Shown here piece after piece: positions 12,107 to 21,149 of a stretch of 64,000 bases of DNA. The stretch comes from Escherichia phage vB_EcoM-RPN242: sequence record OL656110.1, one strand, 5' to 3'. The notes beneath the pieces are model-generated. The model did no database searches and was not told the DNA's origin. It saw only the letters and a list, made by a program, of their open reading frames with translations. Numbering within the stretch: position 1 is the first letter of the stretch; each line of letters opens with the position of its first letter. The translations under genes and the position numbers were made by a program.

Positions 12107-12190
12107 GATATAATCTTACCTTTCAACCCGGTGAACCCATCGTTCGCCAGTTATTGAATAATAGGACATTCCTTAGAGGAAGTAAACCCC

Positions 12191-12222
12191 TAAAAGTAAA
12201 AATCCCCAACGTTTGTTGGGGA
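12191..12222 (-). terminator. intrinsic terminator after ACP-like gene
   Basis: Hairpin TCCCCAAC-gttt-GTTGGGGA followed on the minus strand by TTTTTACTTTT. Confidence 0.6.
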
Positions 12223-12228
12223 CTTCTG

Positions 12229-12552
12229 TTATTTGCGCAGGGCAACCACGAGTTCAGCGAGTTCACCAATGGTCGGGTCATCACCTTTACTACCCAGCCA
12301 ACCGTCGTCGATTTCGACCTGAAACTCTTCTTCTAGTTCCATTACGATTTCGATGGCATCCAGTTCGTCACCGCCGAGGTCTTTCTTGGTACGGAGACCA
12401 GCCAGCTTGTCCAGGGCGTCCTCGTTCTGAGATGCCACGTCGTCCAGCAATTTGCGCTTGTCATCGTCACGCCACAGATCCATATTCAGATTGTCAGTGG
12501 CGTACTGAGCCAGATGACGCATGACTTCAACATATGTTGGTTTACTGCTCAT
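12229..12552 (-). CDS. acyl-carrier-protein-like protein with Ser-to-Glu substitution at the phosphopantetheine site
   Basis: KKDLGGDELDAIEIVMELEEEFQVEIDD aligns with E. coli ACP [28 protein letters not shown]. The attachment Ser is encoded here as GAA (Glu), confirmed by reading the codon. SD GGGAGAA. Confidence 0.7.
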   Translation of the reverse strand: MSSKPTYVEVMRHLAQYATDNLNMDLWRDDDKRKLLDDVASQNEDALDKLAGLRTKKDLGGDELDAIEIVMELEEEFQVEIDDGWLGSKGDDPTIGELAELVVALRK

Positions 12553-12560
12553 GCTACTTC

Positions 12561-12587
12561 TCCCAAAGAAAGGCGGGTTGCCCCGCC
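12561..12587 (-). terminator. intrinsic terminator after vWA gene
   Basis: GGCGGG-ttgc-CCCGCC hairpin followed on the minus strand by TTTCTTT. Confidence 0.5.
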
Positions 12588-12594
12588 CGTTGGA

Positions 12595-14796
12595 TTAGAT
12601 TTTGATTTCTTTCTCTGTCAGTTCGGCAGTGACCTTGTACTTCACGCCATCCACTTCAACTTCCATGGTGGACTCTTCCAGGTCGAGGTCGGTGAACCAG
12701 CCGTGGCCAGCAACGATACCATACACCACTTTAGACAGTGTCTTGTTCAGGGCACGGACTTCGGTGATGGCCGCCTTGGCAGCAGCGTCGATCCAGTTTT
12801 CGATCAGCTGTTTCTGTAAGGCTTCAGGCACGGCAGTGATCATAGGAGACTTCACGAATGCTTCGTACTCTTTCAGAGCATTGGCGATGAACAAGTCACC
12901 AGCATTGAGTTTCTTGTTCTCTGCGATCTTCTTCTGTACTGCCGCGATGCTCGGTAGTGAAGACGCCCCGGCGATCTTCACGTTCAGCTCACGGCTCATG
13001 TAGAAGTCGGTAGACTCTTTGGTCTCAGTCTTCGGTGAGAAGCCGTAATCGCGGATGCCGTAGGAGGACAGGAACTCGGCCGCCTCAGCGCCGTACTGTA
13101 CTGCCAGGCCTTTGGCGTTACCCTTACCAACCAGGGCGTCTCGATAGAACTTCAGCACCTTCTGCTTGCCTTTCAGGGCTTCCAGACGGACATTATCCGC
13201 AAAGAACTGAGCAGCACTGATGTTCTTGACCATGGCGCGGTTGACCAGCGGTACGCTTTCCAGGTTCAGGACAAACACTTCCGGACCACCAAACACGTGG
13301 ACGCCCATTTCGATCAGCTTCTGTACAACTTCGATATCAGCCTTGAACGGCAGAGTCTTCACGTTAATGATACCGTCTTTGACGATGGTGTAGTTGCGCC
13401 ACTGGAAAGTATCCAGTTCTTCAGGCAGGCCAAACTTCTTCTGTGCGAATTCAGGCACAGCCACAGTACCGTGTTGAATTGTACGCACACTGATGTTCGG
13501 GCGCTCGGAGTTATAGACCAAATCACTGATTGGCACAACACCCAGATCGTTGGTAGGTTCGAACGTCGGGTTCCACTCTTCGTGCTCTGCCAGCTTGAGA
13601 GCCAGGGCTTTACGCTCTTCTTTGGACTGAGCATTCGCGATCTGTTCTGCCAGCTTGTCTTCGGTGTCGTCGGTTTTCTGCACAGTACCGCGCCCGATGC
13701 TCTTGTAGGAGAACATCGGATGCTTGGTAGCAACAGGCACACCAGCTTCAGCCAGGTACGTCAGAACATCAACGACGGTCGTCGCATCTTCGGCCGGAAC
13801 CAGGTCATAGTCAATACCGTCAACGCCGCGCAGCTGGTCATCAACGATGGCCTGGGTCAGATCGTTCTTGATGTTGGAGTAGTCCTGCTTGGTGAAGCAG
13901 TTGCTGTACTGTTTGATGAAGCGAACGTCGCCCGTCTTCTTCAGCGCAGCCCAAACCAGATCTGCGTCCATAGTGTGTACGCCGTAGAACGCCAGCACGT
14001 ATGCCGCCTGGATGTCCGCCAGGCTATCCATCTGGTCGATCATGTTAGGGTTTACAACCCACAGCTTGGTGACGCTCTCAGGGATGCTCACGTGGCCGAT
14101 AGGATGGTCTTCATCCGGCTGTACCGCCAGAACAGTTGCTACGCCGTTTTCAACATAGATAGCGTGGGTGTATAGCAGAGGCACATCAACAACCACCTTC
14201 GGTACTGATGACTTCAGCACGTTTTCCAGTTCGGTCTGGTATTCGGTCTGACCTTCGGCAAACACGTGAGTAGCACCAGAGCGTTCGGCCATCTGCGTCA
14301 GCAGTTCACGGTTACAGTGCCAGCCGTATTCGATAAATGTAATGTTATCGAAAGCAAATGGCAGGGTCTCAGCAACCAGTAGAATTTCGTTGGTACGCCA
14401 GCAGTTGTCATACCCGTCAGTCATGAACGCCAGGTTGTTGACGTAGCCAGGTTTCTTCAGGTCACGCGCAGTATCCATCGCCAGTTTCAATGGCTCAACG
14501 AATCCAGTACATCCGGACGGTTGCAGGAAGCGATCGATCAGTTTGTTCAGCTCGCTCAGGTCAGACGCAGCACCAACCTGGCGGCCAGCGAACACAGTGC
14601 CAAAGTCGCCTTTGGATGAGAAGTATAGAACACTTACAGTGTCTTCCGGTTTCACCAGGGAAGGCAGGTTCTCCTTCAGGTGCTTGCGGACTTCAGGAAG
14701 CGCACGGTACATAGAGCCGGAAATGTCTACAACGATTACATGGTTGGACGGAGCAGCAGTCGCAACCGCATTCTTAAATTCTAATGATTCAATCAT
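12595..14796 (-). CDS. von Willebrand factor A (vWA) domain protein, 733 aa
   Basis: N-terminal MIDAS motif VIVVDISGSM (DxSxS) followed by about 550 aa of unassigned sequence. Start taken at the ATG with an AAGAGA RBS (track start is further upstream). Confidence 0.7.
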   Translation of the reverse strand: MIESLEFKNAVATAAPSNHVIVVDISGSMYRALPEVRKHLKENLPSLVKPEDTVSVLYFSSKGDFGTVFAGRQVGAASDLSELNKLIDRFLQPSGCTGFVEPLKLAMDTARDLKKPGYVNNLAFMTDGYDNCWRTNEILLVAETLPFAFDNITFIEYGWHCNRELLTQMAERSGATHVFAEGQTEYQTELENVLKSSVPKVVVDVPLLYTHAIYVENGVATVLAVQPDEDHPIGHVSIPESVTKLWVVNPNMIDQMDSLADIQAAYVLAFYGVHTMDADLVWAALKKTGDVRFIKQYSNCFTKQDYSNIKNDLTQAIVDDQLRGVDGIDYDLVPAEDATTVVDVLTYLAEAGVPVATKHPMFSYKSIGRGTVQKTDDTEDKLAEQIANAQSKEERKALALKLAEHEEWNPTFEPTNDLGVVPISDLVYNSERPNISVRTIQHGTVAVPEFAQKKFGLPEELDTFQWRNYTIVKDGIINVKTLPFKADIEVVQKLIEMGVHVFGGPEVFVLNLESVPLVNRAMVKNISAAQFFADNVRLEALKGKQKVLKFYRDALVGKGNAKGLAVQYGAEAAEFLSSYGIRDYGFSPKTETKESTDFYMSRELNVKIAGASSLPSIAAVQKKIAENKKLNAGDLFIANALKEYEAFVKSPMITAVPEALQKQLIENWIDAAAKAAITEVRALNKTLSKVVYGIVAGHGWFTDLDLEESTMEVEVDGVKYKVTAELTEKEIKI

Positions 14797-15004
14797 TGTT
14801 CTCTTCGCCTTGTGCGTAAGGGTTAAGTTCAGACTCATCAGCGGCTTCGATGCGCGTCTTTACAGAGTCCAGCATATTGTTGATAAACTCACGAGACTGC
14901 TCCAGCTGAGCCAAGAGCACATCCTTTGGAGCATAGTTCTGAATGCAAGCCGGAATACTTTCAGACGTCGCCTTCAGGTCGGTAAAACATTCTTTCAGTA
15001 TCAT
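14789..15004 (-). CDS. hypothetical protein
   Basis: 71-aa ORF; its end overlaps the vWA gene start by 8 nt; weak SD. Confidence 0.45.
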   Translation of the reverse strand: MILKECFTDLKATSESIPACIQNYAPKDVLLAQLEQSREFINNMLDSVKTRIEAADESELNPYAQGEENND

Positions 15005-15086
15005 TTGATCTCACTTAACAGAGACGACACCCTGTTGGGATTTAATAGCGGTCTTCACGCGCCAGGGGTGATAGAATCACCGTAGA

Positions 15087-15320
15087 TCAGGCCGATGTGC
15101 TCATCCAACAGGAAGTGCCCAGTTTCAAAGATCTCCCACAGGCGCTGGATAGAGCCAACCGCTTCTGAACGTCTGATGATTTGATGTGAGCATCAATCAC
15201 CACGTTCTGAACATGGCCGATAGGGATACCAGATTTTTGAATCTTGATATGTTCCTCACCACCTGGGAAGGTGAAGTGTTTGTAGAACACATCTTGGTCG
15301 TTCAATTTCAAACGAAACAT
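15087..15320 (-). CDS. hypothetical protein (possible frameshifted gene continuing to about 15055)
   Basis: 77-aa ORF with SD GAGGT; the C-terminal 27 aa are low-complexity while another frame carries a more protein-like continuation. Confidence 0.4.
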   Translation of the reverse strand: MFRLKLNDQDVFYKHFTFPGGEEHIKIQKSGIPIGHVQNVVIDAHIKSSDVQKRLALSSACGRSLKLGTSCWMSTSA

Positions 15321-15428
15321 AATGTAACCTCATGGTGTATTGTACAGCCGTATTATACTGTGATGTACAAATTGAAACGCCCAGCATTTACGCTGGACGT
15401 TATTGATATTGAAAAGGTTTTGACAAAC

Positions 15429-15662
15429 TCAGGATTTGGAGGAAGCGCCCTTCCATGTCTGACGTTTGTAGTGGGAAGCCATGGCCATCGACCCGGCGTA
15501 TTGCGTTTCACCCCTGACCACCACAGCCACAACCAGCTTATGTCGTAACAGGAAGTCCAGACCTGACTTAGACGGGATATCGCCAATGCTCAGTGGACCA
15601 CGATTGTACAGGGCATACATGGTGTCAAGCGCCGCCCCGGTAAAGATAATCTCTTTAGACAT
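15429..15662 (-). CDS. hypothetical protein
   Basis: 77-aa ORF from the internal ATG (MSKEIIFTG...). Confidence 0.4.
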   Translation of the reverse strand: MSKEIIFTGAALDTMYALYNRGPLSIGDIPSKSGLDFLLRHKLVVAVVVRGETQYAGSMAMASHYKRQTWKGASSKS

Positions 15663-18966: not shown

Positions 18967-19896
18967 TTATTCAGAAGAACCATATCGTTCTGTCCATTTA
19001 GGACATTTCAAAGGTTCCCACCCTCTATTGAAACGTTCGATAATGCTGTTTGTCGCATTAAAAGCCTTCAGGTCTTTTGTTCTGTACACATGCATGAGGG
19101 CTTCCGCTCTTTTCATTGTTTTTATTGCTTCAAGGAATTTATCAGCTTTTGACCAATACGCATCATTGTCGGGGTTCCATTTACCCTTCTCCCAAGGCAT
19201 CTTAGCCAACATGCCTTTCTGAGCGTTTTCTTTCTGTTTGGCGCGTTGCTCTGGTGTGAATGAGTTGGTTAAGTCCTTCCCATAATTGGGATTGAGTTCC
19301 CCAAGTTTAGCTTTACTGGCACGTTCAGAAAATTGTTCTAAATCTATGTTGGCGCGGCGTTTCTCTAAAACCCGCCTTTTATATTCAGGATCAGAAGCCA
19401 TCCTTTCATGGATTTTCATCAATCCTTTGGTAATTTTCTTGACTTGCTCTGGGGTTCTCTTATATCCATATTGGGGATTATTCTTTCCTCTTCTCCCATA
19501 CATTGGGTTGTTTGCCCCGACGCATTTGGAGACACCCTTTGTGAGTTTGGATATTCTTTGTCCAAATTCTTTCCTTAACTTTTCGTAAAGGTGAGAATTA
19601 AATTTTATACCCGTTGGTGTATACCTACCCCCACGGCTCATCAAAAGAACAGCATATACCATATCAGAATTCGGGAAAGCCAAGGCCAAGCATACATGGA
19701 CAAGATAATGTTGTCTGCCTGTTAATCGAACCAAATTTATCTTATCTTTAGAATATTCAGGGAACATGCTCTTGGGAAGGATGTGGTGCAATTCAGTGTA
19801 GTCACCATCAGAATATTTGAAAGATTGAACCATCATCAAATACTTCTTGATGAAATGCGGTTTACCGCCTTTAGAAATCAATAATTCGTAAAACAT
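18967..19896 (-). CDS. HNH homing endonuclease with NUMOD-like repeats (free-standing)
   Basis: HNH core TELHHILPKSMFPEYSKDKINLVRLTGRQHYLVH plus repeated NPMYGRRGKNNPQYG motifs; sits between core genes. Confidence 0.8.
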   Translation of the reverse strand: MFYELLISKGGKPHFIKKYLMMVQSFKYSDGDYTELHHILPKSMFPEYSKDKINLVRLTGRQHYLVHVCLALAFPNSDMVYAVLLMSRGGRYTPTGIKFNSHLYEKLRKEFGQRISKLTKGVSKCVGANNPMYGRRGKNNPQYGYKRTPEQVKKITKGLMKIHERMASDPEYKRRVLEKRRANIDLEQFSERASKAKLGELNPNYGKDLTNSFTPEQRAKQKENAQKGMLAKMPWEKGKWNPDNDAYWSKADKFLEAIKTMKRAEALMHVYRTKDLKAFNATNSIIERFNRGWEPLKCPKWTERYGSSE

Positions 19897-19955: not shown

Positions 19956-21149
19956 TTACTTTTTAAATAAATTTAGTAGGTTTTTAGAACCAGATGTCGC
20001 TTTAGGTTGTCCTTCCCCATCGTATCCAACCTTCCCGCGCGGTTTTTTACCTTGCTGTACAGCCTCTACACAACGGGTATATTTCTGAAGTTCACAAAAC
20101 ATATTTTCTCCTGCCATTATATTTAAATGGCGATCCCAAGGCTCTTCCACAGACCAAAATTCTTCCCTGTTATACCCAAGAGGACCATAAACTGCGTCCT
20201 GGTTGTCCCGTAGCCAGAAGATGCATTCTTCGTGGGTCATACCGTCTTTGTTCAGGAACAGCAGATCAATACCTGCGCGACAGCCTGGTCCAGCAACCGT
20301 GAAGTGGTTCTCACTGAAAGGATATTCAGGAATGTAAGTGAAGTCTACCCAGATCTGATAGGCCAGGAATGGACCAAGCCCTTCGATGTCGTCATACATG
20401 CGCTGGTATACTTCCAAAGGAGTACCAAGGCGCAGCAGGTCATGGAAATAATTTGGATACTTGTTGACGAATGCCTTCAGGGAGCGGATGACACGCATTG
20501 GCATGTACGGTTCCCAACCTTCGATGGTGTAGAAGTCCGGCTCTGCTTCGGCTATCGCCTTGGCTTCTTTATAATCCATGTTCTGGGTTGAACCGTCTTT
20601 ACAGATCAGATTCACCATCATCCCACCGAAGCGCTGCTCCTTGTGGTTGACAACCATCTCAGGGAAAGCCAGGCATTGCTTCAGGCCGCCCGTGTTGAAG
20701 GCATTGGTGAATACCTTACCGCCGTCGGCCTCGAACTTCTGAAGTCGTTCGCGGGTTGCATCGAGGTTGATCTCGGCGAATTCTTTGATCGTCATCGCGC
20801 CGCCGATAGCCTGGATTGGATCCCAGAGGTTGAACATGCGGAACATCACGCAGTTGAACATCTTGTCGGCCATACCCAGAGCATCGTTGTTGACAATGTT
20901 GTTGATCAGGTTGAGAGACTGCCTGTCGTGCTCTCTCCGGACATTACAGAACTTGACCTGCCGTAGTATGGGATTATCAGTCCAAGGAGCAGGAAGGCGC
21001 TGGACGTCCTTCTTGACGTGGATCTGATAACGATCGCGCATCCATTCGTAAGACAGGCGGGTATGGGTCGGACTGAGAACCGGTTTGGCCGACTTTATCT
21101 TTTCTTCACGGACACCGCAGTACGGGACGTCTAGGGCTTTATCTTTCAT
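19956..21149 (-). CDS. hypothetical protein (397 aa)
   Basis: ORF with good SD AGAGGA 5 nt upstream; no assignable motif. Confidence 0.65.
   Translation of the reverse strand: MKDKALDVPYCGVREEKIKSAKPVLSPTHTRLSYEWMRDRYQIHVKKDVQRLPAPWTDNPILRQVKFCNVRREHDRQSLNLINNIVNNDALGMADKMFNCVMFRMFNLWDPIQAIGGAMTIKEFAEINLDATRERLQKFEADGGKVFTNAFNTGGLKQCLAFPEMVVNHKEQRFGGMMVNLICKDGSTQNMDYKEAKAIAEAEPDFYTIEGWEPYMPMRVIRSLKAFVNKYPNYFHDLLRLGTPLEVYQRMYDDIEGLGPFLAYQIWVDFTYIPEYPFSENHFTVAGPGCRAGIDLLFLNKDGMTHEECIFWLRDNQDAVYGPLGYNREEFWSVEEPWDRHLNIMAGENMFCELQKYTRCVEAVQQGKKPRGKVGYDGEGQPKATSGSKNLLNLFKK

Follow-up and report, generated by a model that had tools for sequence, protein, structure and literature searches.

The DNA analysed here, referred to below as the window, is a stretch of 64,000 nucleotides from Escherichia phage vB_EcoM-RPN242 (OL656110.1), which carries on its minus strand a small gene for a look-alike of acyl carrier protein (ACP) that we call pseudo-ACP. 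An earlier note, made from the sequence alone, had described a 107-aa protein with the helix-II signature of ACPs, in which the phosphopantetheine-attachment serine is replaced by a glutamate whose codon, GAA, is at least two substitutions away from any Ser codon. These statements were borne out by a gap-free phmmer alignment, a match to the Pfam PP-binding family and direct reading of the codon. The gene and its features are listed below.

12229..12552, minus strand: coding sequence of pseudo-ACP, 107 aa, start MSSKPTYVEV (stop codon within the coordinates)
12558-12564, minus strand: ribosome binding site (RBS) GGGAGAA, about 6 nt 5' of the ATG, read from the sequence
12412..12483, minus strand: loop-1 helical insertion, residues 24-47, a hypervariable cassette, placed by alignment and the AlphaFold2 (AF2) model
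12322..12381, minus strand: ACP helix II ("recognition helix"), residues 58-77, DLGGDELDAIEIVMELEEEF, placed by alignments to ACPs
12364-12366, minus strand: codon GAA (reverse complement of ttc) for Glu63, in the column of the phosphopantetheine-attachment serine, Ser36 of E. coli AcpP

An RBS is annotated at the equivalent place in phage Maynard. The encoded protein is acidic (pI 4.26; 27 Asp and Glu versus 13 Lys and Arg), and Glu63 forms the first residue of helix II in the AF2 model. Residues 58-77 aligned without gaps to helix II of the Bacillus subtilis ACP (phmmer E=5e-6), and the phmmer matches in the PDB were exclusively ACPs. The profile search proposed in the earlier note returned the PP-binding family (PF00550) at E=8.1e-7 and 29.6 bits over residues 58-102, above the gathering cut-off of 20.8. 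The NCBIfam equivalog model for AcpP, TIGR00517, reached 34.6 bits versus a cut-off of 70.45, with a match limited to residues 54-83.

Structure prediction had been proposed as well, and the lack of an ACP-like fold had been named as an outcome that would speak against the earlier note; an ACP fold was returned. AF2 gave a mean predicted local distance difference test (pLDDT) of 82.8 and a predicted template modelling score (pTM) of 0.73 with 118 sequences, an alignment that took in distant members and true ACPs. This run was preferred to one with 28 close homologues alone, which reached a pLDDT of 45 and was discarded. The predicted helices comprise residues 7-21 (I), 30-40 and 44-51 (insertion), 63-76 (II), 83-88 (III) and 95-106 (IV), and an independent BFVD model of the ViI orthologue matched this arrangement with a TM score of 0.91. 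The models show four helices packed as a right-handed bundle, in which loop 1 is long and the attachment site lies at the start of helix II. According to the models, pseudo-ACP has the fold of an ACP without being an AcpP equivalog.

The comparison with E. coli AcpP shows where the two proteins part. Helix II of pseudo-ACP is identical in 14 of 20 positions and retains every acidic docking residue, and both proteins are acidic (pI 4.3 for pseudo-ACP). In contrast to AcpP, pseudo-ACP has Glu or Asp in place of Ser36 and hence no phosphopantetheine site, adds a two-helix insertion of about 25 residues in loop 1, and possesses a Trp-containing helix III as well as a DDPT motif before helix IV.

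The acidic residue at the attachment site is a fixed trait of the family. Escherichia phage AV101 and related Agtrevirus and Kuttervirus phages (Ackermannviridae) share 96-97% identity with the window in this region. Homologues were found in 271 phage records, commonly annotated as "acyl carrier protein", and the PHROG family phrog_4154 bears the same name in the category "moron, auxiliary metabolic gene and host takeover". When 28 homologues with 58-96% identity were aligned, this site had Glu in 26 and Asp in 2 of them, and Glu or Asp were the exclusive residues in 38 homologue clusters. The same applied to all 8 more distant full-length members (33-50% identical) recovered by a full-database profile search. 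Among 25 sequenced family loci, 16 had Glu and 9 Asp, the latter being the residue of the ViI/CBA120-type Kutterviruses; none had serine at this position, which the earlier note had proposed to compare in related phages. The replacement described there thus holds as Ser to Glu for the protein of the window, whereas the trait of the family is Glu or Asp.

The site is encoded by GAA, GAG or GAC and the adjacent codons show synonymous drift across the loci, which disposes of a sequencing error as the source of the codon. The ratio of nonsynonymous to synonymous substitution rates (dN/dS) versus relatives was 0.13-0.34. Since the acidic site is fixed and the gene is under purifying selection, it represents neither a sequencing error nor a decaying gene. 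A serine in the context (D/H)S(L/I), as found in functional carriers, is replaced by Glu63 here and by Glu or Asp in all family members studied; elsewhere in the family alignment, no DSL-like context contained a conserved Ser. T94 aligns with the Thr that opens helix IV in ordinary ACPs.

The surroundings of the site are conserved to a high degree. D62, L64, D65, I67, E68, E74 and E76 are invariant in the 28-sequence alignment, and D62, L64, E68 and E74 stayed invariant even when true ACPs were added. D62, D65, E68, E74, E75 and E76 correspond to D35, D38, E41, E47, E48 and E49 of E. coli AcpP, and D83 of helix III corresponds to D56, so that the acidic docking residues of helix II are invariant or nearly so. 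Family-specific invariants lie elsewhere in the protein, namely Y7, V10, M11, L14, Y17, N21-L22-N23, W85, G87 and the DDPT motif before helix IV. The protein therefore shows the combination that characterizes a Ser-less ACP binding subunit, i.e. an ACP fold, loss of the serine and retention of the helix-II acids under selection.

Without the attachment serine, acyl carriage by canonical chemistry is not to be expected. Phosphopantetheinyl transferases require this residue, and its absence, fixed under purifying selection, supports the view of the earlier note that the protein cannot be phosphopantetheinylated. Genuine ACPs dock with the acidic surface of helix II on basic patches of client proteins. 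Since pseudo-ACP has kept this surface, it most likely works by binding rather than by carrying. We thus consider it very probable that pseudo-ACP is a conserved non-carrier whose intact ACP docking helix serves to bind other proteins. From the sequence we infer that the prosthetic group is absent, and by further reasoning that the protein would act by binding and that its target would be found in the host.

Residues 24-47 are absent from canonical ACPs in the alignment and constitute the most variable part of the protein. When the window was compared with Gloob, Maynard, Marshall and P46FS4, this cassette was 19-27% identical versus 95-96% for the rest of the protein. The cassette DNA could not be aligned over about 66 nt and its borders were sharp; at least three unrelated cassette types occurred among genes with about 95% identical flanks. 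The pattern suggests that an exposed element has been exchanged by recombination. For an ACP fold, a hypervariable cassette with such sharp borders is unusual, and it offers a ready handle for specificity swaps.

To place these features in a wider context, viral contigs were scanned with a DNA pattern that left the attachment codon free and hence provided an unbiased sample. Outside the pseudo-ACP family, Ser was found in 69 of 72 viral ACP-like genes, and the two ACPs of a jumbo Pseudomonas phage retain it. Genuine phage ACPs such as those of the Pseudomonas jumbo phage HRDY3 and of a Brevundimonas phage resemble pseudo-ACP as small acidic proteins of ACP fold in the same PHROG functional category, but keep the DSLD serine and can therefore be true carriers. 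An interaction of a phage ACP with host FabZ, predicted in the FlashPPI preprint, was considered as a precedent and set aside, because it concerns the Ser-containing ACP of a Brevundimonas phage, outside the pseudo-ACP family. ACP look-alikes of canonical length with Ser replaced by Glu or Asp, and with no vWA gene (the neighbour of pseudo-ACP described below) nearby, were detected in unrelated viral contigs (L005, L034-L037, L081 and L107; that of L035 reads VKDLGADELDIIEVAMAVEEAF). In cellular genomes the strict pattern DLGxDELD is rare, with only 28 stretches found in a survey of one genome for each of 100,044 species.

Two of these contigs, L035 (2714-5315) and L036 (3443-6438), are IMG/VR contigs of 199 kb and 172 kb in which the Ser-to-Glu ACP-like domain lies beside two common uncharacterised gene families (24% identity over 356 aa and 36% over 103 aa). 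They may form a separate conserved module around a Ser-less ACP. No known domain was found in the two families, for which Pfam gave sub-threshold kinase and DnaJ matches. Metagenomic proteins of 216-425 aa (P0050, P0054, P0055, P0074, P0076-P0078 and P0120) contain two to three tandem ACP-like domains, several with a signal-peptide-like N-terminus; Ser is retained at the attachment site of some repeats and replaced by Glu, Asp, Gly, Pro, Thr, Phe or Trp in others.

ACP-fold binding proteins that lack the serine are already known; pseudo-ACP stands apart in that its acidic replacement is fixed, its loop-1 cassette is hypervariable and it is encoded by a phage. The mitochondrial ACP of Plasmodium falciparum, in which Ser is replaced by Phe, is a pure binding subunit for Isd11-Nfs1 with the replacement residue in the interface (PMC8547962). 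Like pseudo-ACP it is an ACP homologue beyond phosphopantetheinylation with retained helix-II Glu residues; it differs in being a eukaryotic organellar protein with a hydrophobic Phe and a known LYR-motif partner, and no LYR-like partner is evident for pseudo-ACP. In the account of Keating, Carey and Cronan (1995) given in PMC3896788, apo-ACP inhibits glycerol-3-phosphate acyltransferase more than holo-ACP does and halts growth of E. coli. Apo-ACP lacks the prosthetic group and yet docks on client enzymes, which is the mechanism proposed here for pseudo-ACP. However, apo-ACP is the host's own protein and was artificially overproduced, whereas pseudo-ACP comes from a phage, has diverged and can never be modified, and any inhibition by it is putative. 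MukB, finally, is activated equally by apo- and holo-AcpP (PMC8602292). Together, these three precedents make a decoy or adaptor mechanism credible.

The genes of this part of the window are all encoded on the minus strand. In the direction of transcription, the order starts with a 5-hydroxymethyldeoxyuridine (5-hmdU) DNA kinase, a homing endonuclease and a 672-aa DUF8224 protein, and continues with small open reading frames (ORFs), a 71-aa ORF, a protein with a von Willebrand factor A (vWA) domain and a metal ion-dependent adhesion site (MIDAS), a GC-rich hairpin, pseudo-ACP, a strong terminator and a promoter-like site. The features outside the pseudo-ACP gene, together with a homologous ORF of Erwinia phage Bue1, are the following.

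12158..12186, minus strand: sigma-70-like promoter match TTTACT-17-TATTAT, just past the terminator (promoter scan)
12192..12222, minus strand: strong intrinsic terminator CCCCAAC-AAAC-GTTGGGG followed by ATTTTTACTTTT, 3' of the pseudo-ACP stop (terminator scan)
12565..12588, minus strand: GC-rich hairpin GGGCGGGG-CAA-CCCGCC followed by a TTCTTT run, terminator- or attenuator-like, between vWA stop and pseudo-ACP start (terminator scan)
12595..14838, minus strand: vWA/MIDAS protein, 747 aa from the ATG at 14838 or 733 aa from the ATG at 14796 (start backed by most homologues)
18967-19896, minus strand: homing endonuclease gene (phrog_655), between the kinase and the 672-aa DUF8224 gene
19956-21149, minus strand: 5-hmdU DNA kinase (Pfam HMUDK_hel, E=2e-78), about 7 kb from pseudo-ACP
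L012 7313-7612, corresponding to MG973030.1 84601-84897: ACP-like ORF of Erwinia phage vB_EamM-Bue1, absent from the GenBank/RefSeq annotation, as is its counterpart in phiEa2809

The 733-aa vWA neighbour and the two flanking terminator-like hairpins had been pointed out before and were recovered by ORF analysis, Pfam and the terminator scan. The stem of the hairpin 12565..12588 is retained through different sequences in the diverged loci L003, L004 and L007, and it is annotated as a terminator in phage Maynard. The terminator 12192..12222 was kept in all 6 loci examined. From this retention of RNA structures we conclude that pseudo-ACP is the last gene of the vWA unit, located 3' of a possible attenuator. 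The sequence around the promoter match is conserved in related loci, and this match probably starts the next transcription unit. No T4-type late promoter (TATAAATA) was found near the operon, and the conserved TTAGGGGTTTACTT element occurs a single time in the window. Programmed readthrough from vWA into pseudo-ACP was considered since the two are in frame here without an intervening stop; it was rejected because the frame relation differs at other loci.

The 5-hmdU DNA kinase marks the thymidine-hypermodification system of ViI-like phages. Its proximity prompted us to consider a role of pseudo-ACP in DNA hypermodification, which was ruled out. In vitro, synthesis of 5-(2-aminoethoxy)methyldeoxyuridine (5-NeOmdU) of ViI was reconstituted with the kinase gp67/gp243, the serine:DNA transferase gp247, the decarboxylase gp226 and free serine (PMC8989533); pseudo-ACP is not among these components and is thus not required for the pathway. 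In phage Maynard an HNH endonuclease occupies the site equivalent to that of the homing endonuclease. Compared with Shigella phage Gloob (L002 13084-15496), the window at 15050-15440 lacks about 2.3 kb with most of NAMPT and the ribose-phosphate pyrophosphokinase (PRS), an NAD salvage module, of which short remnants including a 77-aa ORF (15087-15320) persist. The NAMPT/PRS module is present in Gloob and L003 and deleted here, so that the flanks vary. The longer form of the vWA protein overlaps the end of the upstream 71-aa ORF (14789-15004).

The vWA protein matched the Pfam VWA family with E=1e-6 and 29.2 bits versus a cut-off of 23.8. Its MIDAS motif D-x-S-x-S...T...D is complete, and D24, S26, S28, T97 and D127 are invariant in 67 homologues. 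For the C-terminal part of about 540 aa no known domain was found, as profile searches of PDB and Pfam returned vWA matches alone. T4-like vWA copies are about 48% identical, which is about as close as the most distant Ackermannviridae copy and suggests horizontal transfer. A vWA gene of Ackermannviridae type, 83% identical, is also contained in OR844942.1, "Enterococcus phage Efm 3-10" (111 kb), a record that is probably mislabelled or contaminated. In the Erwinia phages Bue1 and phiEa2809 an unannotated 99-aa ACP-like ORF with MDELD at the Ser site follows directly after the vWA gene. In Aeromonas phage TSW001 (PV714136.1, 144 kb; L014, L187-L190) the kinase is 47% identical and the DUF8224 protein was not found by blastp.

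Several explanations for a Ser-less ACP fold in this position have to be weighed. That a captured ACP gene is decaying here, or that the glutamate of pseudo-ACP stems from a sequencing or assembly error, is practically negligible: nothing beyond the loss of the catalytic Ser speaks for it, while the acidic residue recurs in 271 independent phage records and in metagenomes, dN/dS indicates selection, the ORF, its RBS and the RNA structures on either side have stayed intact and are conserved, and mass spectrometry of phage Sajous1 has picked up the protein (PMC10892097). Very improbable, too, is a carrier with non-canonical chemistry, which would bear its cargo on the Glu/Asp carboxylate or phosphopantetheine at another residue. 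The amino-group carrier protein LysW has its cargo attached to a carboxylate, and the pseudo-ACP family strictly retains a carboxylate precisely where carriers have their attachment residue, with the 5-hmdU DNA kinase about 7 kb away. However, Glu and Asp swap freely, the family conserves no Ser elsewhere, the neighbouring genes showed no ATP-grasp enzyme, ligase or phosphopantetheinyl transferase, and the ViI hypermodification proceeded with free serine and without pseudo-ACP (PMC8989533). An explanation by partnership with the vWA protein deserves more weight, although we still judge it unlikely. Here pseudo-ACP would be a dedicated ligand, regulator or adaptor subunit of the co-transcribed protein, with Glu/Asp63 engaging the MIDAS metal or a basic patch. 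The MIDAS metal binds acidic residues of integrin ligands and of MoxR/vWA substrates. As in integrin I domains and the MoxR-associated vWA protein CbbO, the neighbour possesses a complete, invariant MIDAS, and pseudo-ACP always presents a carboxylate at its most exposed position; unlike in the MoxR systems, no AAA+ MoxR partner was seen near the phage vWA gene, and the long C-terminal part is free of known domains. The adjacency holds in the most diverged members (Erwinia phage Bue1, 22% identity; L003, L004 and L007) despite varying flanks, the two genes are the last of a unit closed by a strong terminator, and a position of low expression fits a stoichiometric or regulatory partner. Yet phages of this family largely share their gene order, and adjacency alone is therefore weak evidence. 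The vWA family is far wider than the pseudo-ACP family (503 versus 271 phage records). No ACP-like ORF was found near vWA in the loci examined of T4-like phages (about 48% identity), Shewanella phage Thanatos-1, Pseudomonas phage pf16 and a Paraburkholderia genome, nor by three hidden Markov models in the complete genome of Aeromonas phage TSW001, whose vWA protein is 67% identical. Ser-less look-alikes without a nearby vWA gene likewise provide evidence for a vWA-independent role. When every vWA column was compared, none co-segregated with the cassette type, and none did with the Glu/Asp state, which is uninformative to mildly negative for a partnership; a hypervariable cassette without vWA co-variation fits a surface that faces something outside the operon. 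Adjacency and the MIDAS/carboxylate chemistry are thus suggestive, and an obligate partnership is weakened by the vWA-only genomes. Rather unlikely, in our view, is a binding subunit for some other partner, which might come from the phage or be a defence or regulatory protein of the host; the ACP fold would then serve a new purpose as a structural module. Several mitochondrial complexes set a precedent for such reuse, the family invariants outside helix II (Y7, V10, M11, L14, Y17, N21-N23, W85, G87 and DDPT) would agree with it, and the cassette resembles surfaces that escape host recognition. No candidate for this partner emerged, since PADLOC gave no match and the neighbours of the unrelated Ser-less look-alikes are without known domains.

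The earlier note had suggested that the protein titrates host ACP partners or serves as a docking subunit; both are plausible and the evidence does not separate them. We tentatively hold it possible that pseudo-ACP mimics host ACP as a decoy that cannot be modified and targets the ACP-binding proteins of the host, and slightly favour such a decoy of ACP clients over a subunit of the vWA protein. Within the infected cell, the decoy would sit where ACP normally docks, on a single host ACP-binding protein or a small number of them. Candidate targets would be PlsB and enzymes of fatty-acid or lipid A synthesis, known to be inhibited by apo-ACP, or ACP binders outside metabolism, for instance MukB. 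The carboxylate that replaces the Ser might stand in for the phosphodiester of holo-ACP, and the loop-1 cassette might tune or diversify the exposed surface. A number of observations weigh against this host-directed decoy. Apart from helix II, the protein does not resemble the ACP of the host; its best sequence matches are Firmicute and organellar ACPs, and it fails the TIGR00517 cut-off. The vWA gene ends about 45 nt upstream in all 25 pseudo-ACP loci, an arrangement that argues for a partner from the phage. The first turn of a helix intrinsically favours Glu and Asp; the conserved charge may therefore be structural rather than phosphomimetic, an acid perhaps being the structurally cheapest way to lose the Ser. 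The variability of the cassette could reflect relaxed constraint and recombination rather than an arms race. Host AcpP amounts to 86-358 thousand molecules per cell (PMC8602292), the pseudo-ACP gene lies at the end of an operon behind a terminator-like hairpin and is not placed for very high expression, and the protein was detected just once by mass spectrometry, in the proteomic survey of phage Sajous1 (PMC10892097). General titration is therefore unlikely, and a specific target bound with high affinity would be needed.

A literature search found no paper on the missing serine, nor one that discusses the protein beyond gene tables. A broader reading, which we regard as quite unlikely, would take Ser-to-Glu/Asp pseudo-ACPs as recurrent viral phosphomimetic decoys of holo-ACP that jam or hijack the host ACP machinery (phospholipid and lipid A synthesis, MukBEF), with the Ackermannviridae cassette diversified by arms-race recombination. 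If true, a previously unrecognised class of host-takeover proteins would be hidden under the name "acyl carrier protein" in hundreds of phage genomes.

The label "acyl carrier protein" used in GenBank, RefSeq and PHROGs is misleading, because it implies a lipid carriage which, judged by its residues, the protein almost certainly cannot perform. It covers about 270 Ackermannviridae genomes, among them ViI, CBA120 and many therapy candidates, in which the gene is filed as an auxiliary metabolic or host-takeover gene. As a tractable protein of 12 kDa, pseudo-ACP may reveal a new way in which phages interfere with the ACP hub of the host, or may turn out to be the first known partner of a widespread uncharacterised vWA/MIDAS protein.

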